From NCBI GenBank assembly GCA_964247135.1, contig CAXTTL010000147.1:1-12134 (forward strand): a DNA stretch of 12,134 nucleotides. The letters are read 5' to 3'. This document shows, one piece after another, positions 1 to 12,134 of this stretch; the first letter of the stretch is position 1; the number at the start of each line of letters is the position of its first letter. Position numbers and translations under genes: made by a program. The DNA is from an uncultured Deinococcales bacterium. Lineage in GTDB: Bacteria > Deinococcota > Deinococci > Deinococcales > JAAFIG01. The notes beneath the pieces are model-generated. The model saw nothing but the letters and a program-made list of their open reading frames with translations. It searched no databases and had not been told where the DNA came from.

Positions 1-366
1 GGTGGCATTTTGCAACCCATTCAAAACGACGCCCAATACGACCAACTCAGCGTCTTGCTCGATGATCTGCTCGATTCAACTCGAGGGCATCCAAACCACC
101 CGTTGCGTGGCTTGCTCGAGATTGTCACCAAGCTGATTGAAGATTTTGACCGTGCGCATCCACTCGAGTTGAGCAAACCACATGAAATGCTGGCGTGGTA
201 CATGGAAAGCAAAGCCATTAATCAAGTTCAATTGGCAGCAGCAACGGACATTGACCAGAGTTTAATCTCCAAGCATTTGCAACAAAAACGTCCGATCAGC
301 AAAAACGATGCAAAAACTTACGCACGGTTTTTTGATGCGCCTGTAACAGCTTTTTTCGAGATTTAA
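1..366 (+). CDS. HigA-like XRE/HTH antitoxin or transcriptional regulator, probably 5'-truncated by the window edge
   Basis: The frame is open from base 1 (GGILQPIQNDAQY...). The N-terminal helical part (Y...LLDDLL...LLEIVTKLIEDFD) is followed by an HTH (LAWYMESKAINQVQLAAATDIDQSLISKHLQQKRPISKNDAKTYARFF), the layout of E. coli HigA-type antitoxins. A cognate toxin would lie outside the window. Confidence 0.75.
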   Translation, partial: GGILQPIQNDAQYDQLSVLLDDLLDSTRGHPNHPLRGLLEIVTKLIEDFDRAHPLELSKPHEMLAWYMESKAINQVQLAAATDIDQSLISKHLQQKRPISKNDAKTYARFFDAPVTAFFEI

Positions 367-375
367 ACTCGAGCT

Positions 376-2241
376 TTACATTTCTTCTGGCGCGTCAATT
401 CCAAGCACACCCAAAGCTTCTTTGATCGCGTCAGCAACCCGTATCACAAGCTCGAGGCGGGCTTCTCGTAAACCTTCGGGAGACTCGAGTATCTTGGTGT
501 CTGATTTTCCGTTTTCGTCTTTGTGGTTGTAATACCCATTGAGTGCTGTTGCAAGTTCGAGGGCGTAAGCGCACATTGGATGCGGAGTCACATCACGCAC
601 GCAAAGCTCGAGCACACTTGGGTATCTGGAAACGACTTTAGCCAATTCAAGCTCAAGGTTGCTTATTTGATTCCAGTCCGAAACGCCGTGATGACTAGCC
701 GTTTTATAGTCTCTGGCGATTTTGCGAACTCGAGCGTGAGCATACTGAATTGGTACGGCTGTATCACCTTGGAGCGCTAAGGCTTTATCCCATCTAAAAT
801 CAATTTGACGCTTGGGATCAGATTTCAAAAACGTAAATTTGAGTGCACCAATTCCAACAGTTGAAGTCAAAATTGGTACATCTTCAGGTTTTTCTTCAAT
901 CAATTTTGGATTGAGTTCTTCAAGAACTTTAAGCGCTCGGATTTTTGATTCTGCAACCACATTATCGGCTGGAACGGTTGTCCCCTTCCGTCCGCTCATG
1001 GTTTCACCCTCGAGCAGCACGGTTTCGTTTGCCAAGTGATGGTGTTTTAGCGCATACGTTCCGTCACTGACGAGCGACAATCCAGCTTTCACAACCATTT
1101 GCGGAAATTGTTGTCTGGCATCAATCACGTTCACCACTTCGTCTGCATGGGCGAACTTATGCCCTTCGGGTTCATGCTCGCCGTTAGGTGCGGAAGTCCA
1201 CAGCGTTTTCCCACTGGGTTGCACCCCAAACTTTTGATACTCGAGTCCTTCAAAAAACCCGAGTTTCCAGTAATGGTAGGCAATGTCTTTGGTTTCGTAA
1301 ACGAACGTGCCGTTGCCGCGCACCAGCACTTTGAAGGGTTCCTCGAGTCCTGACACGAATGAACTCATGTCCACGCCTTTCGCGCCTGCGTATTTGCCTT
1401 CGGTGGGACTGAGCAACCTGTCGCCAAAAATCTCGAGCGCAGTTTTGACAAAGCCTTCTTTCACCACGTCCGATTCCCAGACCAGCAGGTCGTATTCAAT
1501 GCCGAGGCTGTATGCCGTCTCGAGTTGCGCCGCCACAACTTTTTCGACAATTCCACGCAATTCGCCGCGCTCGAGGGCATGAACGACCAGGGCGATTTCG
1601 GGTTCGATCTCGAGTTTTTGCGGACTTTTTTCGGGGAATTCTTTGTTAAGGCGCACGTAAGATTCCCCAAGCCAATGGTCAAGGCGTGGCTTATAGCTTA
1701 AAGCTTCATAATCCTCGAGCCAGTTTGCGCCGTGGTATCGGCTGGCGGCGTAAATGCTTTCGGCGGCTTGGCGTCCGGTGTCATCAATGTAATTTTGAAT
1801 TTCGACCTCAAACCCAGCCGCGCGGTAAATTTTGCCCATCGCATCGCCGAGTAACGCACCGCGAATATGTCCGACGTGCCATTCTTTGTTCGGGTTGACG
1901 CTGGTGTGCTCGACGATGACTTTTTGATTTTTTGGTGTTGCCTCGTACCTCGAGTTGACGACATCTTGGGTAAAACCAGCCACATCCACAAAAAAGTTCA
2001 GGTACGGTCCGACCGCTTCGGCTCGAGCGATGCCTTTTGGCAGTTCGATTTTGCTGGCGAGGTCTGCCGCGATTTGCACGGGGTTGGCGCGAAGGGCTTT
2101 TGCCAGCAAGAACGGCAATGGCGTGCCGTAATCGCCTGGTTTGCCGCTTGGGGTGTCTTGAATCACGATCTCGAGTTTTGAGGCTTCGGGTGGAAGGAGT
2201 TTCTCGAGGGCGGTTTTGAGGTTTTGTTTGAAGTCCTGCAT
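376..2241 (-). CDS. argS: Arginyl-tRNA synthetase (class I)
   Basis: 621 aa. N-terminal GDYG...GPYLNF domain, EHTSVNPNKEWHVGH (HIGH-type motif), NYIDDTGRQ, VIDARQ, MSGRKG, a QYAHAR anticodon-binding region and a C-terminal PEEM. The motif wording resembles Thermus/Deinococcus ArgRS. Confidence 0.97.
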   Translation of the reverse strand: MQDFKQNLKTALEKLLPPEASKLEIVIQDTPSGKPGDYGTPLPFLLAKALRANPVQIAADLASKIELPKGIARAEAVGPYLNFFVDVAGFTQDVVNSRYEATPKNQKVIVEHTSVNPNKEWHVGHIRGALLGDAMGKIYRAAGFEVEIQNYIDDTGRQAAESIYAASRYHGANWLEDYEALSYKPRLDHWLGESYVRLNKEFPEKSPQKLEIEPEIALVVHALERGELRGIVEKVVAAQLETAYSLGIEYDLLVWESDVVKEGFVKTALEIFGDRLLSPTEGKYAGAKGVDMSSFVSGLEEPFKVLVRGNGTFVYETKDIAYHYWKLGFFEGLEYQKFGVQPSGKTLWTSAPNGEHEPEGHKFAHADEVVNVIDARQQFPQMVVKAGLSLVSDGTYALKHHHLANETVLLEGETMSGRKGTTVPADNVVAESKIRALKVLEELNPKLIEEKPEDVPILTSTVGIGALKFTFLKSDPKRQIDFRWDKALALQGDTAVPIQYAHARVRKIARDYKTASHHGVSDWNQISNLELELAKVVSRYPSVLELCVRDVTPHPMCAYALELATALNGYYNHKDENGKSDTKILESPEGLREARLELVIRVADAIKEALGVLGIDAPEEM

Positions 2242-2248
2242 GGCGCGA

Positions 2249-2257
2249 ATCGTATCA
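2249..2257 (-). promoter_or_regulatory. Extended -10 promoter (TGaTACGAT) of a probably leaderless argS mRNA
   Basis: The minus strand reads gTGaTACGAT-tcgcgcc-ATG: a TAnnnT hexamer 7 nt before the start codon, with no Shine-Dalgarno. Confidence 0.6.
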
Positions 2258-2328
2258 CACGGGATTACGGGTGGGAGTTGACTTCATCATGACACATCAA
2301 TTGAAGACTACGAATGTAGCGTGAAAAA

Positions 2329-2345
2329 TCACTGGTATACAGTGA
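2329..2345 (+). promoter_or_regulatory. Inverted repeat TCACTG-N5-CAGTGA overlapping a candidate -10 (TACAGT, 2338-2343) of the peptide-nuclease operon
   Basis: Perfect 6-bp arms are seen directly. The operator role is inferred from position. Confidence 0.4.
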
Positions 2346-2353
2346 AGTGATAT

Positions 2354-2383
2354 GTACTCGAGAGCTTTTTTAAACTCGAGTAC
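2354..2383 (+). promoter_or_regulatory. 5'-UTR stem-loop (GTACTCGAG-N12-CTCGAGTAC) just upstream of the SD GGAGG (2391-2395)
   Basis: Perfect 9-bp inverted repeat built from two CTCGAG sites. Confidence 0.5.
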
Positions 2384-2402
2384 GGTTTCGGGAGGAACAA
2401 AA

Positions 2403-2579
2403 ATGCAGACACCAAAAATCCTAGCCATAGATCAGACAAGAACGCCGTATCAAACCCCAAAACTCGAGCTTCATGGCGTTTGGCAGATTGCCACTGGAGT
2501 CACGCTTTCGATTGGAACAGGGGTCAGCTTACCGACGGACATCAAGCTCGAGACGTTTGAATGGAATGGTGAACTATGA
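2403..2579 (+). CDS. 58-aa small protein with a lasso/RRE-type leader motif YxxPxLxxxGxxxxxT
   Basis: SD GGAGG lies 7 nt before ATG 2403, which is preferred over the ORF-track start at 2352. Sequence: MQTPKILAIDQTRTPYQTPKLELHGVWQIATGVTLSIGTGVSLPTDIKLETFEWNGEL. The stop overlaps the nuclease start (ATGA, 2576-2579). Confidence 0.75.
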   Translation: MQTPKILAIDQTRTPYQTPKLELHGVWQIATGVTLSIGTGVSLPTDIKLETFEWNGEL

Positions 2580-5500
2580 AGCTCAAAGTCCTGGGATTGC
2601 TCGCGCCAATGCTGGCGTTCATGGCTTGCACCCAAGCTCCCGCACCAGCCCCAACAAAACCCACGCCCTCGAGCAGCACCGTGCTTGGCACGGTCGAACT
2701 GAGTGTTGACCCTGCAAATACGCGCGGCAAAGCCAAAGTCTCAACCCGAGCGGCGCTGCCTGACAATGCCGCCAGTTTTACCTCCAGCAGCTTTAGCGAT
2801 TTTACTTTCACTTCAACCGGCAGCCGTTACCTCAGTGCGACGTTTAACGTCACCAACAATTCGGGTGCAGATTTTGACAATTTGACGCTTTACGCTTACA
2901 ACCAGGCAGGCTCGAGTTTGGGCGGGACTGCCATCAAAAACCTGGTCAACTTTGGGGGCGGCGCAATCACCGCCGATGCTGCGGCGCAAAGTTTGCTGCC
3001 GACCCATGCGATCACGCAAACCTCACCTGGCGTGTTACAAGTCGATGCGAGCCGTGCCGATTTCCAAGCCTTTAAACCGAGCGAAGTCGCCACCCTGCAA
3101 AGCCAAGCCCTGGGTTTGGGCGTGACCCAAGCCGCAGACACCATTCTCGAGTATGGTTTTGTGGCGCGGAATGCAACCGGTGGGCGCAGCATTCCAAACG
3201 GTGGCACTGGAACCATCACGGTTTCGTACCGCGTGCCAGAATCGAGTTTCACCAACTCGGGCAACCCGTACCGTTTTGTGGCGAATTTTGTGCTTGCCAA
3301 CGAAAGCGCCAGCCGTGTCACCCGAGGGCTTGATGACACGACCACAGATGCCGATGCTCGAGCCAGCGCTTTGAGCGCCGAGACGTTTTTGATTGGCAGC
3401 GACGGTCAGGCTTCTTTGAGCGCCAGTTCGTTCCGCACTGGAAATATTTTGACCGGCAGCAACCCAACTTGTTTGGTTCAAGGTGCTGGTGCGCCGACCT
3501 GCGCCAAATTGACCGAAATTGGTGCGATTCAAGGAACGGCGGGCGCGAGCAGTTTGGTGGCGACTACACCCACGTTTGAAGGTGTGGTGGTCGGTGATTT
3601 CCAGAACAGTGTTGGACCGCCAGCCGTGACCAAATTGAACGGTTTTTTTGTCCAAGATGCCGACGGCGACGGCAACACCAATTCTTCGGACGGTATTTTT
3701 GTGTTCGCGCCCACCGCTCCCGATTTGGCACTTGGCGATCTGGTGCGCGTGACGGGAAGTGTTGCCGAGTTCAACAACGCCACGCAAATTTCGGGCACAG
3801 TCATCGCCACCAAACTTGGCACGACCAGCCAACCCGCCGTGACCGACATCAGTTTGCCCGTAGCAAACCTTTCTGACCTCGAGAAATACGAGGGCATGAG
3901 GGTGCGGTTCACGAACACCTTGACCGTGACCGAACACTTTCAACTCGGGCGTTTTGGACAGGTGGTTTTGGCATCGGACGGCTCGAGCAACCAAACTGGA
4001 ACGGACGCACGGTTTGACAATTACACGGCGTTCAATACCCCGAGCGTTTCAGGTTATGCCACATATTTGAACGATCTTGCCAAACGCCGTGTTTACCTCG
4101 ATGATGCCAGCAGCGCGCAAAATCCTGCCACCATTATTTTTGGGCGTGGCGGCAATCCATTGTCTGCCAGCAACACCTTGCGCGGTGGCGACACGACCGA
4201 CAACTTGACTGGTATTTTCAGCGAGGGTTGCAATTCTGGTGTTTGTGGCACAACCGATTTAAACGGTGCGCCCGTCTACCGGTTGCAAACCGACAGCGCC
4301 GTGAATTTCACCGCCTCCAACGCCCGCTCGAGCACTGCGCCAGCCGTGGGTGGAACATTGCGCGTCTCGAGCTTTAACGTCTTGAATTTCTTTTACCCAG
4401 AAATTGGCACGGCAAACATTACGCGTCCTGTGGGTTGCAGCAACACCATTGGCGCCAGGGGCGCAACCAATGCCGCCGAATTCACACGTCAAAAAGACAA
4501 AATTGTGCAAGCCATCGTGGGCATCAACGCCGATATTTTTGGGCTGACCGAAATCGAAAACGACGCAGACTCGAGCACCAGCGCCATCAACACCCTGGTC
4601 AGTGCCATCAACACCATTGTCGGGGCGGGAACGTATGCGGCAATCGTCAGTCCAAATGTTGGTTGCGACGCGATCAAGGTGGCGTTTATTTACAAACCCG
4701 CCAGCGTCACCCCCATCGGTGCGGCGGTTGCGCCCGCGACTGGTTTTGGCACGGGTTCATTCGACGATCCGCCAACCGTGAACGACGGCAAAACGGGTCG
4801 CAAACCCTTGGCGCAAACCTTCAGGCAAAACTCGAGCGGCGCGTCGTTCACGGCGGTGATGAACCACTTCAAATCCAAAAGCTCGAGCGCGGGCGGTGTG
4901 AACGATGCCGATGCACTGGACGGTCAAGGTTTGTCCAACGGCACACGGGTCAACAACGCCAAAGACTTGCGCGATTGGCTCGCCACCAACCCGACGGGCA
5001 CCACCGACCCTGACTTCTTGCTGTTCGGCGATTTCAACGCCTATCACAAAGAAGACCCGCTGACCACGCTCGAGACGGCGGGTTACAGCAATCTTTTGCC
5101 GATCACCAGTTACTCGTATGTTTTTAGCGGACAATGGGGTTCACTCGACCATGCCTTTGGCAACGCCAGCATGGCGGCTCAGGTCAATGCCGCCGAAAAA
5201 TGGCACATCAACAGCGATGAGCCGAGCGTCTTGGATTACAACACCGAATTTAAAAGCACAGCTCAGGTGAGCAGTTTGTACGCCGCCGATGCCTTCCGCT
5301 CGAGCGACCATGACCCGGTGGTGATCGGACTGAACCTCACTGCGCCCACCAATCCAACCGTCAGTTTGAGCGGCTCGAGCACTGCCAACACGGGCGTCAG
5401 TTACTCGCTTGGCATTGCCGCTGCGCCGGCGTCAGGCTCGAACTTGACGGGCTTGAGTGTCGATTGGGGCGATGGTTCAGCGCTCGAAAACCTGGCGGTG

Positions 5501-6457
5501 GGTGCCACCACCGCCAGCCACACGTACTCGGGCACAGGAAATTTCACGATTTCGGTGACCGCTACAGATGCGAACACCCTGACTGCCAACGCGACCAAAG
5601 CCGTGAGTGTAACCTTGCCAAGCCCCACCATCAGCATCTCAGGCTCGAGCAGCGTCACGGTCAATACCACGTACAGTTTGACCATAACTGCCGCAGCCGC
5701 TTCAGGCTCGAGCATTGCGGGTTTGAGCGTCAACTGGGGCGATGGTTCAGCCCTCGAGAATCTTGCCACAAACGCCACAAACGCCAGCCACAGGTTTTCG
5801 AGCGCTGGAAATTACACCATCACGGCTAGCGTGACGGACGCGAACACCCAAACCGCCAGTGCCACCCAAAGCGTGACCGTGAACGCCTTAATTAAACCTG
5901 GCAAGATCGTGATTTCTCAAGTTTACGGCGGTGGTGGCAACACGGGCGCACCCTACCGTTCGGATTTTGTGGAATTGTTCAACGCTGGCGCTCAGAGCGT
6001 TAACATTGCCGGCTGGTCGGTGCAGTACGCTGCCGCCACATCAACGACGGCAGCTTGGACAGTGACCAACTTGCCAAGTGTCAACATTGCCCCTGGGCAG
6101 TATTACCTGGTCAAACAAGCCGACGGCGCGAATGCAGCCGCAACCGCATTGCCGACCCCAGATACCACGGGTACAACTGCCATGAGCGGTACGGCTGGCA
6201 AAGTCGCGCTTTTGAGCACCACAACCGCCTTAGCCCTCAGCAACCCCTCGGGCAACGCCAACCTGATCGACTTGGTGGGGTATGGCGCAACCGCCAACGG
6301 TTTTGAAGGCACTGGACCAACGCCAGCCCCAAGCAACACCACATCCGTGCTTCGTGCCGCCAACGGGTGCACCGATGCAAACATCAACTCGAGCGACTTT
6401 GCGACGGGCGCACCAACCCCACGCAACACCGCAACGGCTCTTAACGTCTGTCCTTAA
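2576..6457 (+). CDS. Lipoprotein ExeM/NucH-family extracellular nuclease: signal II, unknown N-terminal domain, OB fold, EEP nuclease domain, 2 PKD-like domains, C-terminal lamin-tail domain
   Basis: Lipobox-like FMA-C18 followed by a Pro/Thr linker. OB region: IGAIQG, GVVVGDFQ, GFFVQD, SDGIFVF. EEP motifs: SFNVLN, EIEND, NHFKSK, GDFNAY, GSLDH, WHINSDEP, SSDHDPV. Two WGDGS PKD-like repeats. LTD start: IVISQVYGGGGN...DFVELFN. Confidence 0.9.
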   Translation: MKLKVLGLLAPMLAFMACTQAPAPAPTKPTPSSSTVLGTVELSVDPANTRGKAKVSTRAALPDNAASFTSSSFSDFTFTSTGSRYLSATFNVTNNSGADFDNLTLYAYNQAGSSLGGTAIKNLVNFGGGAITADAAAQSLLPTHAITQTSPGVLQVDASRADFQAFKPSEVATLQSQALGLGVTQAADTILEYGFVARNATGGRSIPNGGTGTITVSYRVPESSFTNSGNPYRFVANFVLANESASRVTRGLDDTTTDADARASALSAETFLIGSDGQASLSASSFRTGNILTGSNPTCLVQGAGAPTCAKLTEIGAIQGTAGASSLVATTPTFEGVVVGDFQNSVGPPAVTKLNGFFVQDADGDGNTNSSDGIFVFAPTAPDLALGDLVRVTGSVAEFNNATQISGTVIATKLGTTSQPAVTDISLPVANLSDLEKYEGMRVRFTNTLTVTEHFQLGRFGQVVLASDGSSNQTGTDARFDNYTAFNTPSVSGYATYLNDLAKRRVYLDDASSAQNPATIIFGRGGNPLSASNTLRGGDTTDNLTGIFSEGCNSGVCGTTDLNGAPVYRLQTDSAVNFTASNARSSTAPAVGGTLRVSSFNVLNFFYPEIGTANITRPVGCSNTIGARGATNAAEFTRQKDKIVQAIVGINADIFGLTEIENDADSSTSAINTLVSAINTIVGAGTYAAIVSPNVGCDAIKVAFIYKPASVTPIGAAVAPATGFGTGSFDDPPTVNDGKTGRKPLAQTFRQNSSGASFTAVMNHFKSKSSSAGGVNDADALDGQGLSNGTRVNNAKDLRDWLATNPTGTTDPDFLLFGDFNAYHKEDPLTTLETAGYSNLLPITSYSYVFSGQWGSLDHAFGNASMAAQVNAAEKWHINSDEPSVLDYNTEFKSTAQVSSLYAADAFRSSDHDPVVIGLNLTAPTNPTVSLSGSSTANTGVSYSLGIAAAPASGSNLTGLSVDWGDGSALENLAVGATTASHTYSGTGNFTISVTATDANTLTANATKAVSVTLPSPTISISGSSSVTVNTTYSLTITAAAASGSSIAGLSVNWGDGSALENLATNATNASHRFSSAGNYTITASVTDANTQTASATQSVTVNALIKPGKIVISQVYGGGGNTGAPYRSDFVELFNAGAQSVNIAGWSVQYAAATSTTAAWTVTNLPSVNIAPGQYYLVKQADGANAAATALPTPDTTGTTAMSGTAGKVALLSTTTALALSNPSGNANLIDLVGYGATANGFEGTGPTPAPSNTTSVLRAANGCTDANINSSDFATGAPTPRNTATALNVCP
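5354..5882 (+). repeat. Intragenic tandem duplication, period 270 bp (90 aa), encoding two PKD-like domains
   Basis: PTVSLSGSS...GLSVDWGDGSALENLA...TDANT is repeated as PTISISGSS...GLSVNWGDGSALENLA...TDANT. The DNA tggggcgatggttcagc is identical in both copies. Confidence 0.9.
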
Positions 6458-6474
6458 AACTTAAACTTTTGAAT

Positions 6475-6508
6475 CTCGAGGGACGGTCTGAGCGTCCCTC
6501 GGGTTTTT
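6475..6508 (+). terminator. Intrinsic terminator of the nuclease operon
   Basis: Stem CTCGAGGGACG / CGTCCCTCGGG (one G-U pair), a 7-nt loop and TTTTT, starting 18 nt after the stop codon. Confidence 0.8.
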
Positions 6509-6542
6509 GTTGGTTTTCCTCGTGCTTTTCATCCTCAGACCG

Positions 6543-6548
6543 TATAAT
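6543..6548 (+). promoter_or_regulatory. -10 hexamer TATAAT of a probably leaderless HD-GYP gene
   Basis: TATAAT-gctcag-ATG(6555), with no SD. Confidence 0.65.
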
Positions 6549-6554
6549 GCTCAG

Positions 6555-7634
6555 ATGTTCCGTCGTAAACGCGAAGAGGCAAGCCCGCAAAATACCGCCG
6601 ATTCCATCAAAGCTGCCGCCGAACTCTTGACGGTGCGCTCCGAAAAACAGCTTCTCGAACTGGCACTGGCTCATGCGCTCGAAATAGCGCCCGCCGCGAC
6701 TCGAGCTTACGCCGTGATTCGTCAAGGGACCGATAAAATCGCGGCGGTCAAAGGTTACAGCCAGGATTTTATTGACCTCGAGTTGGTCGGACCTTGGAAC
6801 GACGGCACGCCGCGCATCTCGAACAATCTTTCTGGCGATTTGTTCAACCCCAACGTTGCCGAGGTGCGTGCCAAATTGGGCGCGATGGGTTTGCGCGAGG
6901 TTCGCAATGCCCTGATCGCGCCGATGCGTGACAGTTCTGGCAGCAAAGGCATTCTGGGCGCGTTGGTGCTGGACGCCTACGGCAATCAAAGTTTTGAACC
7001 GACCGTGCTCGAGGCGGTGCAGCGCTGGTCTTGGGTGGTGTCGCAAAGCCTGACCTTGATTCGTCAGCTTGGCTATCACCGTCAACTGGCTTGGCATTTG
7101 ACTTTGGCGTTCATTGAAGCCATCGAAGCCCAAGATTTTACCCAACTCGGACACGCGCAGCGCGTCACCAGTTACGCGATGGCGCTGGCACGCGAAATCG
7201 GACTCTCGAGCCAAGAACAAAACGATGTCTGGTTCGCCGCCATGCTTCACAACCTCGGGCGTCTCAGCGGTGAGGGTCTCGAGCCTGCCGCCGTGGCGGG
7301 TTTGGGGTTTAATATTTTGTCGCACGTTCAAGAACTCGAGGCGTCACGGATTGGTATTTTGCACGTTTTCGAGCATTGGGACGGCACGGGCGCACCGAAA
7401 AAATTAAGCCGCAACGCCATTCCCATTTTCTCGAGAATCATTGCGATTTCCAACGCCTACGACAGCCTGACCTCTGAGCGCGGCGAGGAACTCAACAGCC
7501 GCGAGGCGCTCGAGCGAATGCGTTTTGAGTCGGGTAAAATTTACGACCCAGAGTTGATCGAGCGGTTTGCCAACGTGCTGGCGCAGAACAAAGCCACCGC
7601 CGAATTGCGTCAGGGTAGTTTGTTCCCAGCTTGA
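6555..7634 (+). CDS. GAF domain + degenerate HD-GYP domain protein (c-di-GMP phosphodiesterase-like)
   Basis: GAF-like N-terminal half (ALIAPMRD...ILGALVLD...F), then EAQD...GHAQRV, MLHNLGR, EHWDGTGAP, IPIFSRIIAISNAYDSLTS and SGKIYDP. Start 6555 is chosen from the TATAAT spacing; the ORF-track TTG at 6507 lies in the terminator tail. Confidence 0.85.
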   Translation: MFRRKREEASPQNTADSIKAAAELLTVRSEKQLLELALAHALEIAPAATRAYAVIRQGTDKIAAVKGYSQDFIDLELVGPWNDGTPRISNNLSGDLFNPNVAEVRAKLGAMGLREVRNALIAPMRDSSGSKGILGALVLDAYGNQSFEPTVLEAVQRWSWVVSQSLTLIRQLGYHRQLAWHLTLAFIEAIEAQDFTQLGHAQRVTSYAMALAREIGLSSQEQNDVWFAAMLHNLGRLSGEGLEPAAVAGLGFNILSHVQELEASRIGILHVFEHWDGTGAPKKLSRNAIPIFSRIIAISNAYDSLTSERGEELNSREALERMRFESGKIYDPELIERFANVLAQNKATAELRQGSLFPA

Positions 7635-7660
7635 AAATCCAGCTCGAGCGTCAGCACAAG

Positions 7661-7692
7661 AAAAAGCCACCCCATTGCTGGAGTGACTTTTT
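7661..7692 (-). terminator. Intrinsic terminator for sodA, possibly bidirectional, between convergent genes
   Basis: The minus strand reads AAAAAGTCACTCCA-GCAA-TGGGGTGGCTTTTT: a stem with G-U pairs, a GNRA tetraloop and A/T tracts on both sides. Confidence 0.8.
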
Positions 7693-7701
7693 GAAATTCA
7701 A

Positions 7702-8301
7702 TTACTTCGAGTAGTTCGTTTGCGCCTTATCCCAATTGACCACATTCCACCAAGCCTCGAGGTACTTGGGGCGCAAATTCTGGTATTTGAGGTAGTACGC
7801 GTGCTCCCAGACATCCACACCCAACACGGCGGTCGCACCCAACTCGAGCGGGGTGTCCTGGTTTGCGGTGCTGACCACCTCGAGCTTGCCGTCTTTGGAA
7901 ACCAACCATGCCCAACCCGAACCGAAGCGACCCACGCCGGCGGCATTGATTTTTTCTTTGAGGGCATCCAGACCGCCAAAGGTTGCCGTGATGGCTTCCG
8001 ACAGGCTGCCAACTGGGGCGCTCGAGCCGCCTGGAGTCATTAAATCCCAGAAGAAGCTGTGATTCCAGTGCCCGCCACCATTGTTGCGCACCGCACCGCG
8101 AATGTCCTCTGGAACGCCAGCAAGGTTCGAGAGCATCTCCTCGAGCGGCATGTCAATCTCTGGGTGCTTCTCGAGGGCGGCGTTGAGGTTATTCACGTAA
8201 GCCTGATGGTGCTTGCCGTGATGGATTTGCATGGTTTGCTCGTCGATGTGGGGTTCGAGCGCGTTGTGAGCGTATGGCAGAGGTGCGAGTTCGTATTTCA
8301 T
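7702..8301 (-). CDS. sodA: Manganese superoxide dismutase
   Basis: [46 protein letters not shown] and DVWEHAYY. The GGG and NQD residues are Mn-type. SD AGGAGG at 8307-8312. Confidence 0.95.
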
Positions 8302-8306
8302 GAGTG

Positions 8307-8359
8307 CCTCCTTGGATTTCTTCTCGAGGATACCCGAGAAGTGTCAACTCGAGATTCTA
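8307..8359 (-). promoter_or_regulatory. sodA promoter and leader: -10 TAGAAT (8354-8359), stem-loop (8320-8341), SD AGGAGG (8307-8312)
   Basis: The minus strand reads TAGAAT-CTCGAG-ttgaca-CTTCTCGggtatcctCGAGAAG-aaatcca-AGGAGG-cactc-ATG. Confidence 0.55.
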
Positions 8360-8415
8360 CCCGTTCTTGAAGGTTTGCGTTTGTCACACTGAATAGGATT
8401 TGGTGGTTTGGGACT

Positions 8416-8421
8416 TAAACT
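8416..8421 (+). promoter_or_regulatory. -10 hexamer TAAACT of a probably leaderless kynA mRNA
   Basis: TAAACT-gtaggc-ATG(8428), with no clear SD. Confidence 0.55.
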
Positions 8422-8427
8422 GTAGGC

Positions 8428-9267
8428 ATGACCCAAGCAAACTCCGATTCGACTTTTGCCAGCGCCCATACGGACCTGAAAGACAAGTTCGATTACGGCT
8501 CGTACCTCAAACTCGAGCAACTGCTGTCCGCCCAGACCATGTTGACCGACACGCACGACGAGCCGTTGTTCATCATCATCCATCAGGTGTCCGAACTTTG
8601 GATGAAACTGATCGTCCACGAGCTGCAAAGCGCCATGAATTGTTTGACCCAGAACAACATCGAACCCGCCATGAAAATGCTGGCGCGGGTGTCTCGGGCG
8701 CAAGAGCAAATGACCAACGCCTGGGAGGTCTTAAAAACCATGACGCCCACCGATTATTTGACGTTTCGCTCGAGTTTCGGGCAGGCTTCGGGTTTTCAAT
8801 CGCATCAGTACCGTTTGATCGAATTTTTGTTCGGCAACAAGCAGGCGTTCATGCTCAAACCCCACGCGCATCAGCCCGAACATTACGCGCTACTCGAGAA
8901 CGCAATGCAGCAACCCAGCATTTACGATCTGGCGATTCGCTTGTTGCATCAACACGGTTTGAGTATTCCCGATGAACTGTTGACTCGAGATTTCGCGGTT
9001 TCATATCAAGCCAACGAAGCTGTGAAAAATGCTTGGCTTAAGGTCTACCGCAACACCGAAAAATACTGGGATTTGTACGCCCTGGCGGAAAAACTGATCG
9101 ATGTCGAGGACAATTTCAGGCGTTGGCGTTTCAACCACCTGACCACCGTCGAACGCGTGATCGGTTTTAAAGCCGGTTCGGGCGGCACGGCTGGCGTGCC
9201 GTACTTGCGTCGGGCGCTCGAGATTGTCCTGTTCCCAGAACTGTGGCAGATCAGAACGGAGCTGTAA
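8428..9267 (+). CDS. kynA: Tryptophan 2,3-dioxygenase
   Basis: YGSYLKLEQLLSAQ, HDEPLFIIIHQVSELW, MTPTDYLTFR, ASGFQS.QYR.IEF, WRFNHLTTVERVIG and GSGGTAGVPYL. Confidence 0.95.
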   Translation: MTQANSDSTFASAHTDLKDKFDYGSYLKLEQLLSAQTMLTDTHDEPLFIIIHQVSELWMKLIVHELQSAMNCLTQNNIEPAMKMLARVSRAQEQMTNAWEVLKTMTPTDYLTFRSSFGQASGFQSHQYRLIEFLFGNKQAFMLKPHAHQPEHYALLENAMQQPSIYDLAIRLLHQHGLSIPDELLTRDFAVSYQANEAVKNAWLKVYRNTEKYWDLYALAEKLIDVEDNFRRWRFNHLTTVERVIGFKAGSGGTAGVPYLRRALEIVLFPELWQIRTEL

Positions 9268-9932
9268 TGACTTTTGACCAAATGCGCGACCAACAACTCG
9301 AGATCGCCCAAAAAGCCGTGTTTGAAGGTTCACTCGAGCATGTGCGGCGTTTTGTGGCGGTGGACATGAGCGCCAACTCTTTTTTGCTGGGCGACGACGC
9401 GCCACTTTTCGCGGCTGCCGTGCTTCTCGAGCGCGGCAACAAAACACCGCTCGAGGTTGCCACCGCCACCATGAAACCCGATATTCCGTACCGCACGGGT
9501 TTTCTGGCATTTCGTGAAGCCCCAGTCATTCTGGCGGCACTCGAGAAATTAAAAGGTGATTTTGATTTGATCTGGTGCGACGGCAACGGCTTGATGCACC
9601 CGCGCCGCGCCGGAATCGCCACGCAGTTGGGCGTGCAACTCGAGAAACCATCCTTGGGCGTCGCCAAACAGCCGCTCACTGGAAAATATAAAGACGTGGC
9701 GCTCGAGGCTGGCGCAAAAGAACCTGTGGTGTCCTCGAGCGGTGAAATCTTGGGTTTTGCGTTGCGATCAAAACGCAACACGAAATTGATTTACGTCTCG
9801 CCAGGGCATTTGTGCGACGTCGATAGCGCTCTGGAATTCGTGCTCGAGCATTCGGACGGTTTGAGGATTCCGTACCCGACCCGTTTGGCGCATACTGCCT
9901 CGAATGAAGCACGAAAAGCAGGATCAGTATGA
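9267..9932 (+). CDS. nfi: Endonuclease V (deoxyinosine 3' endonuclease)
   Basis: VAVDMS, PYRTGFLAFRE, CDGNGLMHPRRAGIA, GVAK, YVSPGH and RIPYPTRLAH. ATG 9267 overlaps the kynA stop (TAATG). Confidence 0.92.
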   Translation: MTFDQMRDQQLEIAQKAVFEGSLEHVRRFVAVDMSANSFLLGDDAPLFAAAVLLERGNKTPLEVATATMKPDIPYRTGFLAFREAPVILAALEKLKGDFDLIWCDGNGLMHPRRAGIATQLGVQLEKPSLGVAKQPLTGKYKDVALEAGAKEPVVSSSGEILGFALRSKRNTKLIYVSPGHLCDVDSALEFVLEHSDGLRIPYPTRLAHTASNEARKAGSV

Positions 9933-9959
9933 GGCACGAGCAATCCTCAAATGACTTTT

Positions 9960-9984
9960 CTTGGTGTTGACCAAGTGCTAGCAT
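9960..9984 (+). promoter_or_regulatory. TA-module promoter: inverted repeat CTTGGT-N4-ACCAAG next to the extended -10 TGcTAGCAT, probably leaderless
   Basis: Inverted repeat at 9960-9975, palindrome TGCTAGCA at 9976-9983, and TAGCAT (9979-9984) 6 nt before ATG 9991. Confidence 0.55.
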
Positions 9985-9990
9985 TATCTT

Positions 9991-10230
9991 ATGAATCAGA
10001 TATTGCGCATCTCCATTCCCGAAAAAGTGTATTCAACCCTCGAGCGTGCCGCTAAAACCAGTCAACAACCACTCGAGAAAGTGGCGGCAGATTGGTTGGA
10101 GCAAGTGGCAGATGCAACGCAAGACCCACTCGATCAATTTATTGGATCATTCGCCAGTGGAATCAAAGATTTAGCTGATCAGCATGACAAATATCTTGGC
10201 GAATCACTTGCTGAACATTTAAAAGGATGA
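9991..10230 (+). CDS. Putative VapB-like antitoxin (ribbon-helix-helix-like N terminus)
   Basis: 79 aa. An alternating strand LRISIP is followed by helices (EKVYSTLERAAK...LEKVAADWL), then an acidic tail DPLDQFIG...DLADQHDKYL. It overlaps the PIN gene (ATGA). Confidence 0.7.
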   Translation: MNQILRISIPEKVYSTLERAAKTSQQPLEKVAADWLEQVADATQDPLDQFIGSFASGIKDLADQHDKYLGESLAEHLKG

Positions 10231-10649
10231 ACATTTTCGCAGATACATCTGGCTGGGCAAGTTTGCTCGATACAGACCAGGAATATCATTTATTGGCAGC
10301 ATCAATTTATAATTCTGTACAGCAAAGCAACCAACAGTTCATAACAACAAATTATGTGATTGCCGAGTTGGTGTCCTTACTCAACAGTCCAATGCGATAC
10401 CCACGTGAAAAAGCTGTCCATTTCGTAAACAGTATTAAGAATTCAAAATTTGTTCGTGTTGTTCACATTGATGAAACACTGGACAACGAAGCATGGGAAT
10501 TACTTTCTAAACGCTTAGACAAAACTTGGAGTTTGGTGGATTGCTCGAGTTTCGTCGTCATGCAACGGGAAAAACTCACCGAGGCTTTCACTGCCGATCA
10601 TCACTTTGCTCAAGCCGGTTTCATTCCATTGCTTAAAGTTCGCAAGTGA
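10227..10649 (+). CDS. vapC: PIN-domain ribonuclease, VapC-family toxin
   Basis: IFADTS, TTNYVIAE, SLVDCSSF and AFTADHHF contain the four conserved acidic PIN positions. 140 aa. Confidence 0.88.
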   Translation: MNIFADTSGWASLLDTDQEYHLLAASIYNSVQQSNQQFITTNYVIAELVSLLNSPMRYPREKAVHFVNSIKNSKFVRVVHIDETLDNEAWELLSKRLDKTWSLVDCSSFVVMQREKLTEAFTADHHFAQAGFIPLLKVRK

Positions 10650-10661
10650 GACAGGATTCTG

Positions 10662-10997
10662 ATGTCACAACCTAAAAACTCGAGCATTTTTACCCTTGCC
10701 GTCTTCCGAGTCTCGAGCGACAATCAAAAAGCCTTTATTGCCGCCTGGAATGCGCTGTGCTCGGCATTCTTACAACTTCCGCAACCGCCAGCCACCAACA
10801 TGACCTTGATTCAAAGCACCGAAAACCTCGAGGTATTTCAATCTTTGGGCGCGTGGCACAGCCTGGAAGACGTTCAGGCGATGCGGGTTAATCTCGAGAT
10901 TGTGCTCTTGATGAACGCGATGGTGGCACTGACCGATCAGGCGCAACCTGGAACGTTTAAGGTTATTGGCGTTGTGCCTGAGCATGATAATCTTTGA
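10662..10997 (+). CDS. Dimeric alpha-beta barrel (ABM/antibiotic biosynthesis monooxygenase-like) protein
   Basis: 111 aa with the pattern FRV..DNQKAFIAAW...TLIQS.EN...F.SLGAWHSLED..A typical of ABM-like folds. Possible SD AGGA upstream. Confidence 0.6.
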   Translation: MSQPKNSSIFTLAVFRVSSDNQKAFIAAWNALCSAFLQLPQPPATNMTLIQSTENLEVFQSLGAWHSLEDVQAMRVNLEIVLLMNAMVALTDQAQPGTFKVIGVVPEHDNL

Positions 10998-10999
10998 GC

Positions 11000-11584
11000 A
11001 TGACGCCAAATCAAATCGCGTTCGAGTTCAGAGCCGCATTTGAAGACACCCAAGGTTGGATGATCGGACACACCGCCTTCAAAAACGGCTGGCACGGCGA
11101 CGGCTGGCTCGAGAAAGGCGTTTTGGTGCGCGACCCAGCGCGTTTGTACACCCTGTTAAAACACCAAGCCAACGCCATCAAAAAGCACTTCCCACAAACC
11201 GAACTGATTGTCGGCATTCCCGCCTGCGGCGCGGTGGTCGCCAGTTTTGTCGCCGCGCATCTGGAACTTCCACTGGCGCTGACCATACCCGTCGCAGAAA
11301 ACCTCGAGTTTCATCGAATGCACGTGCCGCAAGCTGGTTTAAAAACCGTGATCGTCGATGATCTGATTTTTTCGGGCAGCGACGCTCGAGCGCACCTGCA
11401 ATTCTTGGGCAAGCACGGTCTGGAAGTGCTTGGCATTAGCGCCTGGGTTTCTCGGGTTGGTACAGAATTGGATGGCGTGCCGCTGGCGACCTTGATGCCC
11501 GCACCGTTTCAAACGTTTTCGGCAACCAATTGCCCGTTGTGTCTGCAAGCCGAAGTGATTCGTTGGCAGGATATTCGGGAGTAA
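11000..11584 (+). CDS. Type I phosphoribosyltransferase, divergent PyrE (orotate PRTase)-like
   Basis: PRPP-loop-like VIVDDLIFSGS, N-terminal GHTAFKNGWHG (compare GHF...SG.HS of PyrE), IVGIPACGAVVA and a C-terminal CPLC as in Thermus/Firmicutes-type PyrE. The start is either ATG 11000 or TTG 10994. Confidence 0.75.
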   Translation: MTPNQIAFEFRAAFEDTQGWMIGHTAFKNGWHGDGWLEKGVLVRDPARLYTLLKHQANAIKKHFPQTELIVGIPACGAVVASFVAAHLELPLALTIPVAENLEFHRMHVPQAGLKTVIVDDLIFSGSDARAHLQFLGKHGLEVLGISAWVSRVGTELDGVPLATLMPAPFQTFSATNCPLCLQAEVIRWQDIRE

Positions 11585-11590
11585 GGTGTT

Positions 11591-11618
11591 GTAGGGGCAA
11601 GGCATGTCTCGCCCCTAC
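11591..11618. repeat. GTAG-type REP-like 28-bp palindrome
   Basis: GTAGGGGCAAGGCATGTCTCGCCCCTAC has 12 of 14 positions Watson-Crick self-complementary, begins with GTAG on both strands, and is intergenic between convergent genes. Confidence 0.7.
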
Positions 11619-11678
11619 GTGACCAGTTGCTTAAACACGTTCTCCTCAAGAATTACTCGAGCCTTACCGCACAAAATA

Positions 11679-12134
11679 TCATTGAGCTTCCCACAACGCC
11701 CTGAATTCTCGAGCGTTCGTCAAGCCCTGCCCTCGGGTGGTGTTCTCGAGGAAGACAAAAGCATTCTCGACTTTGGAGGCTTTTAAAGCGGTTACCCACG
11801 GATTCAGTTCGGCTGGTGTGTACAAGTAATCGTGACGTTCGGCGGCGTCTTTGCCATCAAACCAATTCGCACGGTTGCGCCCATGCAAGCGCAAATACAC
11901 CAACTTGTCACGCCGCAAGACGGGCGCGGGCAACCCCTCGAGCGCGGGCAAATCGACGCTAACAGGATGCAAACCAATGTCTGCCAGAAATTGATAGACG
12001 ATGTCCTTGTCCCAACTGGCGTGCCGAAATTCCACCGCCACGTCCACCCCCGCGAACCATTGGGCAAGTTTGCTCAAATAGGCTCGAGATTCGCTGGTAT
12101 TTTTAAACGAGAATGGAAATTGAGCCAGAAGTGG
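11679..12134 (-). CDS. DUF72 (YecE/YunF-like) protein, 5'-truncated by the window edge
   Basis: The frame is open to base 12134 (PLLAQFPFSFKN...). Motifs: VAVEFRHASW, VSVDLP, YLRLHGRN, HDYLY and FVFLEN. Confidence 0.88.
   Translation of the reverse strand, partial: PLLAQFPFSFKNTSESRAYLSKLAQWFAGVDVAVEFRHASWDKDIVYQFLADIGLHPVSVDLPALEGLPAPVLRRDKLVYLRLHGRNRANWFDGKDAAERHDYLYTPAELNPWVTALKASKVENAFVFLENTTRGQGLTNAREFRALWEAQ

Follow-up and report, generated by a model that had tools for sequence, protein, structure and literature searches.

A lineage-wide, highly iterated CTCGAG palindrome in uncultured Deinococcales

The hexameric palindrome CTCGAG recurs throughout a 12,134-bp stretch of DNA from an uncultured Deinococcales bacterium (the window), which raises the question of how far the excess extends and what could maintain it. 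The exact count is 89 copies (7.3 per kb, positions 80..12088, the first starting at 80 and the last at 12083), in agreement with the hand count of about 89 in the original prediction. In 200 dinucleotide-preserving shuffles of the window, the word occurs 2.15 times on average (sd 1.45, maximum 6), and none of the 200 reaches 89. By reading phase, 46 copies are in phase 0, where they encode Leu-Glu, 22 in phase 2 and 9 in phase 1; the remaining 12 fall outside any called ORF. The positions proposed beforehand as phase 1 (80, 3357, 6700, and 8984) are all four in that phase on the ORF map. Likewise, the eight proposed as non-coding (368, 2357, 2375, 6475, 7643, 8323, 8348, and 11656) all fall between ORFs, where four further copies are found (2463, 2547, 10039, and 10072).

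In the left half of the window, three copies (80..168) lie in a 5'-open forward-strand ORF (1-366; phase 1 at 80, phase 0 at 115 and 163), and one (368..373) takes up the greater part of a 9-bp gap that separates two convergent ORFs, the stops of which are at 366 and 376. The arginyl-tRNA synthetase (ArgRS) gene on the reverse strand (376-2241) carries 16 copies (451..2208), 13 of them in phase 0 (451, 484, 607, 1009, 1240, 1342, 1432, 1519, 1570, 1609, 1714, 2170, 2203), two in phase 1 (729, 2022) and one in phase 2 (1949). The divergent spacer 2242-2575 has four copies. Two of them, 18 bp from each other (2357..2380), form one hairpin stem with their flanks (-17.4 kcal/mol for the fold of 2335-2400), and the other two (2463..2552) stand upstream of a 1293-aa gene. 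This forward-strand gene (2576-6457), of endonuclease/exonuclease/phosphatase-PKD-lamin-tail type, holds 18 copies (2668..6393). Thirteen are in phase 2 (2668, 2911, 3982, 4327, 4366, 4570, 4831, 4882, 5299, 5374, 5644, 5707, 6388), four in phase 0 (3146, 3878, 5069, 5753) and one in phase 1 (3357). The single copy of the spacer 6458-6506 (6475..6480) supplies the 5' arm of a hairpin resembling a terminator (-21.7 kcal/mol for the fold of 6455-6510); its 3' arm carries the one-nucleotide variant CTCGGG, and a run of T comes next.

Further on, the HD-domain gene (6507-7634, forward) has eight copies (6700..7514; phase 1 at 6700, phase 0 at 6777, 7008, 7278, 7335, and 7509, phase 2 at 7205 and 7430), and the convergent spacer 7635-7701 has one (7643..7648). 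Six copies (7756..8175) are located in the Fe/Mn superoxide dismutase gene (7702-8301, reverse; phase 0 at 7756, 7843, 7879, 8140, and 8170, phase 2 at 8021), followed by two, 25 bp apart, in the divergent spacer 8302-8427 (8323..8353). The tryptophan 2,3-dioxygenase gene (8428-9267, forward) contains five (8512..9222; phase 0 at 8512, 8893, and 9217, phase 2 at 8769, phase 1 at 8984), and the endonuclease V gene (9243-9932, forward) nine (9297..9848; phase 0 at 9297, 9333, 9426, 9450, 9540, 9639, 9702, and 9843, phase 2 at 9734). Two copies between called ORFs, upstream of a PIN-domain gene (10039..10077), may belong to a short uncalled gene. The PIN-domain gene itself (10227-10649, forward) has only one copy (10544..10549, phase 2). 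Four copies (10679..10898) are in a 111-aa ORF (10662-10997, forward; phase 2 at 10679 and 10712, phase 0 at 10827 and 10893) and three (11108..11390) in a phosphoribosyltransferase-like gene (10994-11584, forward; phase 0 at 11108 and 11303, phase 1 at 11385). The convergent spacer 11585-11678 holds one copy (11656..11661), and a 5'-open reverse-strand ORF (11679-12134) the last four (11708..12088; phase 1 at 11708 and 12083, phase 0 at 11745 and 11937).

Confinement of the motif to this contig, which would have counted against the original prediction, is not observed. In the window's genome (5.09 Mb, 386 contigs), CTCGAG is the commonest hexamer, with 33,925 copies (6.7 per kb, about one per 150 bp), and all 297 contigs of at least 5 kb are rich in it (2.6-10.5 per kb, median 6.8). 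The observed/expected ratio (O/E) is 24.8 from base composition, 35.2 from a first-order and 14.4 from a second-order Markov model. The excess of about 30-fold put forward for the window is therefore found genome-wide, at 25-35 times expectation under zero- and first-order models. The flanks are nearly uninformative (G at -1 in 39% of cases, A at -3 in 37%).

In a survey of the order, 363 genomes were scored by clustered CTCGAG triples, with a reversed word as control. The window's family is hyper-rich in each of its 19 genomes (108-1026 triples; reversed control 0), so that a genome-wide motif of a Deinococcota lineage, as had been supposed, is present in 19/19 family genomes as well as in 297/297 contigs. 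A second deep lineage contains two rich genomes (G156, 431 triples; G157, 578), which are no nearer to the window's family than Trueperaceae are (ArgRS 50-53%); deep lineages of the Deinococcales with the CTCGAG-rich state number at least two. G158, labelled as a congener of these two genomes, has 0 triples and is neutral (O/E 1.2); its kinship to them rests on the genus label and 12 ORF hits, and its ArgRS is of another type. The motif state can thus differ sharply under one genus label, G156 and G157 being rich and G158 neutral. Finally, a genus of 111 genomes (g7) avoids the word (0-1 triples). That the copies are a library, assembly or binning artefact is hardly conceivable, since they stand in frame within intact, long reading frames that encode ordinary Pfam domains, since density is equal in 19 separately assembled family genomes, one of which (G011) is a single contig of 5.09 Mb, and since orthologous CTCGAG positions are common to separate assemblies. 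Of public sequencing runs, four were located, all of them with relatives only.

The excess could also be a by-product of base composition, of codon usage or of a preference for certain codon pairs. Indeed, of the 29,012 copies in called CDS (crude longest-ORF calls, made without a gene finder), 17,606 are in phase 0, the largest class, against 4,677 in phase 1 and 6,729 in phase 2, and high-GC relatives reach 1-3 CTCGAG per kb largely via the use of CTC and GAG codons. However, synonymous shuffling that keeps protein sequence and per-gene codon usage leaves 4,010-4,124 copies (5 replicates), and codon-order shuffling 1,689-1,754; these two null models were used since one built on dicodons would already include the motif. 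The excess thus does not vanish under an amino-acid-preserving shuffle, as had been envisaged in case the prediction was wrong, with only about 4,100 of the 29,012 copies accounted for. Moreover, non-coding DNA (7.6 per kb) is on a par with coding DNA (6.5 per kb), and, of the places where synonymous codons would allow the word, CTCGAG fills 44-46% in the phases other than Leu-Glu (4,677/10,691 and 6,729/14,699), next to 77% in phase 0 (17,576/22,893). G158, with equal GC, Leu and Glu content (control proteome of 884 kb), has only 0.28 CTCGAG per kb. On the basis of the shuffles, the non-coding density, the phase saturation and the G158 control, the by-product reading was rejected, its probability being negligible. 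As anticipated, one codon-pair preference is insufficient, given the shuffles, the phase 1 and 2 copies and those in non-coding DNA.

What the bias targets is the word as DNA, rather than codons or proteins, and it has changed protein sequences. In the window's genome, Leu-Glu pairs number 22,934 vs. 9,551 expected (Glu-Leu, 9,696), and 76.8% of them are written CTCGAG vs. 11.3% expected. Per 1000 aa, Leu-Glu pairs amount to 7.83 in G158 (8.5% written CTCGAG), 15.56 in the window's genome and 16.46 in G156 and G157 together (81%). The motif has roughly doubled the Leu-Glu pairs of the proteome.

Comparison with five sister species (~84% nucleotide identity) shows that 72-78% of CTCGAG copies (n=144-243) are intact vs. 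40-43% of control hexamers. Among the 126 positions where at least one of six genomes has the word, only 46 are common to all six, yet the density in five genera is 5-8 per kb throughout. Copies already in place tend to be retained, and the set of positions changes over time. On terminal branches with a unanimous ancestor, 43 clean losses vs. 3 clean gains were counted, an excess that would fit weak purifying selection and would also fit a motif now decaying. It is virtually certain that CTCGAG is a genuine, lineage-wide highly iterated palindrome (HIP), maintained at the DNA level.

The closest comparison is with HIP1 (GCGATCGC) and the alternate HIPs of cyanobacteria, as described by Elhai (2015; PMC4390886) and Xu et al. 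(2018; PMC5861425). Like these, CTCGAG is a short G+C-rich palindrome whose count is tens of times that expected, and it occurs between genes as well as in every phase within them; like HIP1, it varies between close relatives, and related genomes preserve it better than they do control words. The HIP1-like character inferred from the window is thus upheld by a genome-wide excess of 14.4- to 35.2-fold (about 15-fold or more being the mark of HIP-type words), by copies in all phases and in non-coding DNA, and by extra conservation. Scarcity in recently acquired DNA, another HIP-type trait, is also observed: the window's genome has 16 CTCGAG-free gaps >1.5 kb vs. 1.4 expected, and one of its methylase genes, without orthologs elsewhere in the family, lies within a CTCGAG void of 1,268 bp. 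Recently imported DNA is without the motif. On the other hand, the organisms are Deinococcota and not cyanobacteria, the word has six bases and not eight, and its density (~6,660 per Mb) exceeds the 300-2,700 per Mb given for HIP1 (PMC4390886). CTCGAG is therefore a counterpart of the cyanobacterial repeat in a different phylum, and a denser one. A literature search returned no publication on the CTCGAG motif, no paper supporting methylated and enriched CTCGAG in Meiothermus (the titles joining the two concern enzyme cloning) and nothing on a Thermus CTCGAG methylome.

For HIPs, a methylation-coupled ratchet is Elhai's model, with the report that in cyanobacteria a frequent iterated palindrome is always accompanied by a methylase of matching specificity (Elhai, 2015; PMC4390886). 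Transposed to CTCGAG, as originally suggested, an orphan CTCGAG or TCGA methyltransferase would mark the sites, and methyl-directed mismatch or very-short-patch repair would create and preserve them. Some DNA methylase does occur in every family genome inventoried. In neutral G158, by comparison, N6_N4 methylases are missing and the D12 class gives no more than a marginal match (E 2.6e-4); G158 does not avoid GGCC either, so the rich state may be linked to restriction-modification in general. Specificities are, besides, unreadable from sequence, which leaves room for non-orthologous same-site enzymes. Yet no ortholog group that tracks the motif emerged, and none is universal in the family among N6_N4_Mtase, DNA_methylase, MethyltransfD12, N6_Mtase, and Eco57I (mostly incomplete MAGs). 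N6_N4 methylases were not found in G011, despite its single contig, nor in G003 or G015. The D12-A methylase occurs in 8/19 family genomes and was not found in three fully motif-rich genomes, each 94% complete (G009, G012, and G013), and D12-B occurs in 7/19, paired with a SacI-family nuclease and therefore probably serving GAGCTC. In the gamma class, only a type I HsdM group recurs, and no TaqI_C was detected in the window's genome.

CTCGAG is also the site of XhoI/PaeR7I-type restriction-modification systems, and XhoI-family nucleases (PF04555) occur in the order (3/22 genomes outside the family searched), but none was found in the 19 motif-rich family genomes. G021 and G033 have such a nuclease with an adjacent N6_N4 methylase, and G031 a broken copy; the best match to these methylases in the window's genome (26-28% identity) is a strain-specific import in a CTCGAG void. 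Restriction should give avoidance, as in genus g7, and not the 25-fold excess of the family.

Dcm/Vsr very-short-patch repair, at CCWGG in E. coli, is a precedent for methylase-linked repair that shifts word frequencies. Its effect is small, however, with the T-containing neighbour depleted, whereas the one-nucleotide transition neighbours of CTCGAG are not depleted (O/E 1.74 for TTCGAG/CTCGAA, 1.17 for CTTGAG/CTCAAG) and no C5 methylase is conserved in the family (8 proteins from 5 genomes, no orthologous pair, all singletons). The loss alleles (10 of the 43 at C1/G6, 12 at C3/G4, 5 at T2/A5) are spread over both C positions, with no single methyl-C hotspot. With no XhoI-family nuclease found in the family, no universal group among the methylase ortholog groups that could be defined, and undepleted neighbours, the ratchet is not supported and we regard it as unlikely.

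The copies could instead, as the original prediction also suggested for a nucleoid protein, be binding sites of a putative abundant chromosome-organising or nucleoid protein, with selection on density and spacing. Chromosome-level selection of this kind was proposed for HIP1, which is reported to be conserved and to recur periodically, no function at the level of genes having been found (Xu et al., 2018; PMC5861425). A density as high in spacers as in genes, turnover of positions at constant density, and a short-range spacing slightly more even than that of control words (CV 0.96 vs. 1.04-1.12; 19-23% fewer gaps of 2-3 times the mean than exponential) agree with this idea. Nevertheless, counts are over-dispersed at the 5-kb scale (variance/mean 1.88), and a structural need is hard to square with the neutrality of G158 or with the existence, in this order, of a genus of 111 genomes that avoids the word. 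Such sites are, in our judgment, an improbable explanation.

Our leading guess, put forward tentatively, is that CTCGAG, through its density, would label DNA as the cell's "own" when DNA is taken up, recombined or repaired; a self-DNA or uptake tag was among the options of the original prediction. The agent would be a putative host-encoded CTCGAG-reading protein, probably dimeric, gained or lost between lineages, and its action would bias which alleles become fixed. Such a process would amount to a molecular drive, as has been proposed for DNA-uptake sequences. The uptake words of Neisseriaceae (DUS) and Pasteurellaceae (USS) are genome-wide, common to related lineages, scarce in foreign DNA and present in genes at a cost to proteins, and are thought to spread by fixation drive, not per-site benefit. 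CTCGAG shares the first four of these properties and, as with DUS and USS, some copies lie in hairpin or terminator stems. However, DUS and USS are asymmetric words of 9-12 bp at about one per kb, with a receptor known in Neisseria, whereas CTCGAG is a 6-bp palindrome, six times denser, in uncultured organisms. DNA uptake by cultured Thermus and Deinococcus is not known to be sequence-specific, which also weighs against a self-tag drive, as does the compatibility of the 43 losses vs. 3 gains with decay. As for Chi-like hotspots, these are orientation-biased words read by RecBCD/AddAB, and a palindrome cannot show orientation bias. That something other than a self-tag drive, a methylation ratchet or chromosome-protein sites is at work seems somewhat unlikely. 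Finally, G157 and the window's family have three methylase modules in common (66-74% identity), which, although a methylase-directed search is a biased measure of exchange, points to DNA exchange between CTCGAG-rich lineages, as a shared self-tag would favour.

In this bacterial lineage, outside cyanobacteria, CTCGAG forms a highly iterated palindrome (HIP) that is genuine, extreme, and kept up at the DNA level. To our knowledge, HIPs have so far been described in cyanobacteria alone, where their function is debated, even if the supplementary tables of HIP papers may list other genomes. The window contains exactly 89 copies in 12,134 bp, spanning positions 80 to 12088, as the original prediction had estimated, whereas its dinucleotide-preserving shuffles (n = 200) gave a mean of 2.15 and a maximum of 6. 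On the ORF map, 46 copies are in phase 0 (read as Leu-Glu), 9 in phase 1, and 22 in phase 2, and 12 lie between called ORFs; all four examples given beforehand for phase 1 and all eight for non-coding DNA are correctly placed. The genes concerned are ordinary (arginyl-tRNA synthetase, an HD-domain protein, Fe/Mn superoxide dismutase, tryptophan 2,3-dioxygenase, endonuclease V, a PIN protein), with in addition a 1293-aa secreted-type nuclease/PKD/lamin-tail protein. Folding indicates that some intergenic copies form hairpin stems. The copies at 2357 and 2375 fold together, and a terminator-like hairpin has the one at 6475 in one arm and a CTCGGG variant in the other.

The 1293-aa gene (window 2576-6457) carries 13 of its 18 copies in phase 2 (xxC TCG AGx, read as Ser-Ser or Ser-Arg), unlike the other window genes, in which phase 0 dominates. 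Contigs of environmental relatives skip window 2257-6496 and 9918-10677 and join across both, so that they are devoid of this gene and of the PIN-gene region. Because of this absence, the two look like variable insertions. The sampled words were met in four public runs from two studies, at a share of about 0.05 in each, and in none listed as RNA; their contigs are relatives of the window's own assembly (G000), mostly less than 95% alike.

The excess is not confined to the window's contig (C147). G000 (5,091,702 bp in 386 contigs, 84% complete, 1.8% contaminated, and with no 16S rRNA gene found) contains 33,925 copies, or 1 per 150 bp, which places CTCGAG first among all hexamers. In every one of the 297 contigs of at least 5 kb, density lies between 2.6 and 10.5 copies per kb (median 6.8). 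The observed/expected ratio (O/E) is 24.8 under base composition, 35.2 under a first-order, and 14.4 under a second-order Markov model; it is merely 1.24 under a fourth-order model, because the 5-mers of that model already include CTCGAG. The flanks are little informative (position -1 is G in 39% and position -3 is A in 37%), and spacing is a little more even than that of control words.

Codon choice does not account for the excess. Crude longest-ORF calls (4,745 genes, 87% coding) place 6.5 copies per kb inside genes and 7.6 per kb outside, and the phases 0, 1, and 2 hold 17,606, 4,677, and 6,729 copies. In called CDS, 29,012 copies are observed, vs. 4,010-4,124 after within-gene synonymous-codon shuffling (5 replicates), which preserves the amino acid sequence; codon-order shuffling gives 1,689-1,754. 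Of the synonymous opportunities in phases 0, 1, and 2, CTCGAG occupies 77%, 44%, and 46%, respectively. The proteome is affected as well, with 22,934 Leu-Glu dipeptides vs. 9,551 expected (Glu-Leu, 9,696), 76.8% of them spelled CTCGAG where codon usage predicts 11.3%. At 11.1% Leu and 5.9% Glu, this corresponds to 15.56 Leu-Glu per 1000 aa (O/E 2.40). Two other rich genomes of the order, G156 and G157, taken together (Leu 11.0%, Glu 6.6%), have 16.46 per 1000 aa (O/E 2.25; 81% spelled CTCGAG), and G158, a neutral genome bearing the same genus label (g23), has 7.83 at 11.0% Leu and 5.7% Glu (O/E 1.25), with the 8.5% spelled CTCGAG that its codon usage predicts. We infer that the word accounts for roughly half of the Leu-Glu pairs of rich proteomes, one dipeptide being doubled proteome-wide. 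Any analysis or binning of such genomes that relies on codons, dipeptides or k-mers is biased by it.

We scanned 363 genomes of the order Deinococcales for a clustered-triple pattern, its reversal serving as control. All 19 genomes of the window's family (f1) contain 108-1026 clustered triples each, the reversed control giving 0. In family f3, the 111 genomes of genus g7 have 0-1, G042 has 124, and the three g23 genomes G156, G157, and G158 have 431, 578, and 0, respectively. Counts are 5-151 per genome in genera g13, g26, and g27 of f5, 0-3 in its genus g9, 0-66 in f2 (G327 excluded), and 5-50 in genus g15 of f4, where the reversed control is about equal. Densities in DNA samples are consistent with this survey: 9.2 copies per kb in G156, 7.9 in G007, 6.7 in G157, 4.2-4.6 in G011, 4.1 in G042, 1-3.7 in f2, f4, and f5, and 0-0.2 in g7. 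The arginyl-tRNA synthetases (ArgRS) of G156 and G157 are 50-53% identical to those of f1, Trueperaceae (the next family out) and g7 being equally distant; therefore, the hyper-rich state is found in at least two deep lineages.

G158 carries only 246 copies in 884 kb (0.28 per kb, O/E 1.2). Its tie to G156 and G157 consists of the genus label given by the tool and of 12 of 80 ORFs whose matches in the G158 sample are 37-91% identical, compared with at most 70% for g7. Placement of these three genomes through best hits to G000 proved too noisy. The G158 ArgRS (C1:566712-567956, L340) is 23-27% identical to those of all other Deinococcales compared, which share 47-73% with one another. The gene appears to have been exchanged for one encoding another type of the enzyme, and because of this difference (25% identity), ArgRS was ruled out for dating the G157/G158 split. 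The order offers natural contrasts between hyper-rich genomes (f1, G156, G157), the neutral G158, and a large avoiding genus, so that the responsible gene can be sought through comparison.

Turnover was followed over 52 kb of G000 (the window and two 20-kb stretches) aligned with orthologous DNA of five sister species, to which nucleotide identity is about 84%. CTCGAG is intact in 72-78% of cases (n = 144-243), vs. 40-43% for control hexamers. Where all six genomes align, 126 positions have the word in at least one genome: 46 in six, 34 in five, 14 in four, 3 in three, 13 in two, and 16 in one. Loss alleles are mostly single transitions (TTCGAG, CTCAAG, CTTGAG, CCCGAG, CTCGAA). On terminal branches with a strictly unanimous ancestor, 43 losses face 3 gains. 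The motif may be decaying, which such a surplus would reflect; we rather read it as weakly deleterious losses awaiting purging. Between genera, merely 23-56% of copies are shared while density still amounts to 4-8 per kb, and new copies must therefore keep arising. Raw four-genome counts, with gains from hexamers 3-4 bases off, hinted at multi-base "en bloc" creation of sites. Under a unanimous ancestor, 3-14 gains are left, with at least three changes in 1/3, 2/3, and 2/14 of them (control, 4-7%), and since these are too few, we make no claim of such creation.

The original prediction proposed an orphan methyltransferase as a possible driver. Family-by-family searches for methylases (N6_N4, C5, gamma-class, and D12, in mostly incomplete genomes and with specificities that cannot be read from sequence) and for XhoI nucleases do not support it. 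The XhoI nuclease family was found in none of the 19 f1 genomes and in 3 of 22 others. In one Trueperaceae-level relative (G031 C1:1095688-1096226; L067, L068), the XhoI-family gene is broken by one TGA and one TAG. No N6_N4 methylase was found in G011, G003, and G015. The 349-aa N6_N4 enzyme of G000 was rejected as a driver, its orthologs being limited to G002, G007, and G019, with a fragment in G010, and the 258-aa one as a recent import. C5 methylases in f1 are all singletons, and type I HsdM is the sole recurring gamma-class group. D12-A occurs in 8 of 19 f1 genomes and was not found in three CTCGAG-rich genomes that are each 94% complete. D12-B (7/19) was discarded as it is paired with a SacI-family nuclease. 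Finally, neither depletion of the 1-nt neighbours of CTCGAG in G000 nor a single hotspot in the loss spectrum was seen.

The protein following D12-B (364 aa) aligns with almost the full profile of the SacI nuclease family (E 8e-7, above the curated cut-off). This D12-class methylase and nuclease homolog (G000 contig C320:1064-2985; L044:323-2244), also present as a pair in G001, G005, G011, and G157, probably form a GAGCTC restriction-modification pair. GAGCTC, the SacI site, has 0 copies in the 5.09 Mb of G000 vs. about 1,370 expected. In sampled DNA, there is 1 copy in 467 kb from 14 f1 genomes and none in G156 and G157, whereas O/E is 0.68 in G158. A tie between the CTCGAG flood and this void was considered and dropped: the signals are separable, G042 being rich with normal GAGCTC and g7 avoiding both. 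Many other palindromes are avoided to an extreme degree in G000, among them GGCC (380 copies, O/E 0.02), GGGCCC (1), CGGCCG (3), AGGCCT (4), CGTACG (5), GGATCC (7), CCGCGG (11), CAGCTG (15), GCATGC (17), and ACTAGT (18). TTCGAA has 131 copies and GTCGAC 121; ATCGAT is normal. GGCC is not avoided in G158 (3,948 copies in 884 kb).

Recently imported DNA is devoid of CTCGAG. Gaps longer than 1.5 kb number 16 in G000 vs. 1.4 expected. The 258-aa N6_N4 methylase sits inside a 1,268-bp void (contig C189:4432-5700) and has no ortholog in f1. At 26-28% identity, it is the G000 protein closest to the methylases adjacent to XhoI-family genes in G021 and G033. In practice, the word tells resident from imported DNA in rich genomes. 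Three methylase modules are common to G157 and f1 at 66-74% protein identity (L342, L344, L345, L346), and in two of the three a gene next to the module is conserved as well; the G157 ArgRS is 52% identical. These resemblances suggest a mobilome common to the CTCGAG-rich lineages. Viral contigs yielded at least 120 stretches with the clustered-triple pattern, the 80 listed being mostly phages of 58-72% G+C with a median of 2.1 copies per kb, an ascertainment-biased set that is uninformative on phages of CTCGAG-rich hosts.

Our literature searches turned up nothing on CTCGAG being over-represented in Deinococcota. The accessible sections of Elhai (2015; PMC4390886) and Xu et al. (2018; PMC5861425) treat HIPs and HIP1, the cyanobacterial case, respectively, in cyanobacteria only. 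Those of PMC8112702 describe a Halorubrum strain whose CTCGAG sites (560) are methylated and do not cover Meiothermus, and those of PMC13756078 argue that HIP1 and DNA uptake are linked. CTCGAG differs from cyanobacterial HIPs in its phylum and in being several times as dense. It also appears, from the sequence searches, to depart from the rule proposed for HIPs, in which a cognate methylase accompanies the word. New elements are the order-wide map, the rich/neutral contrast under one genus label, the negative test of the methylase rule, and the GAGCTC void. A possible but rather unlikely explanation is a transferable system of self-DNA recognition or fixation drive, with CTCGAG as the word it recognises, that came into two or more deep Deinococcales lineages and rewrites whole genomes and proteomes. 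Such a system would yield thousands of extra Leu-Glu pairs, and it could be missing from a genome that carries the same genus label as a rich one. If this were true, comparing G156 and G157 with G158 would make the 30-year-old question of HIP purpose directly answerable through comparative genomics.

At loci L074-L076 (three genomes of genus g9), CTCGAG makes up 69 of 95 TCGA-centred hexamers, TCGA being avoided in all other contexts, and the situation is reversed in g7 (4 of 231). Repeats of 40-200 bp (L256:11594-11793 and L257:15251-15305, on C1 and C2 of G000) are present in dozens of copies per genome throughout the genus.
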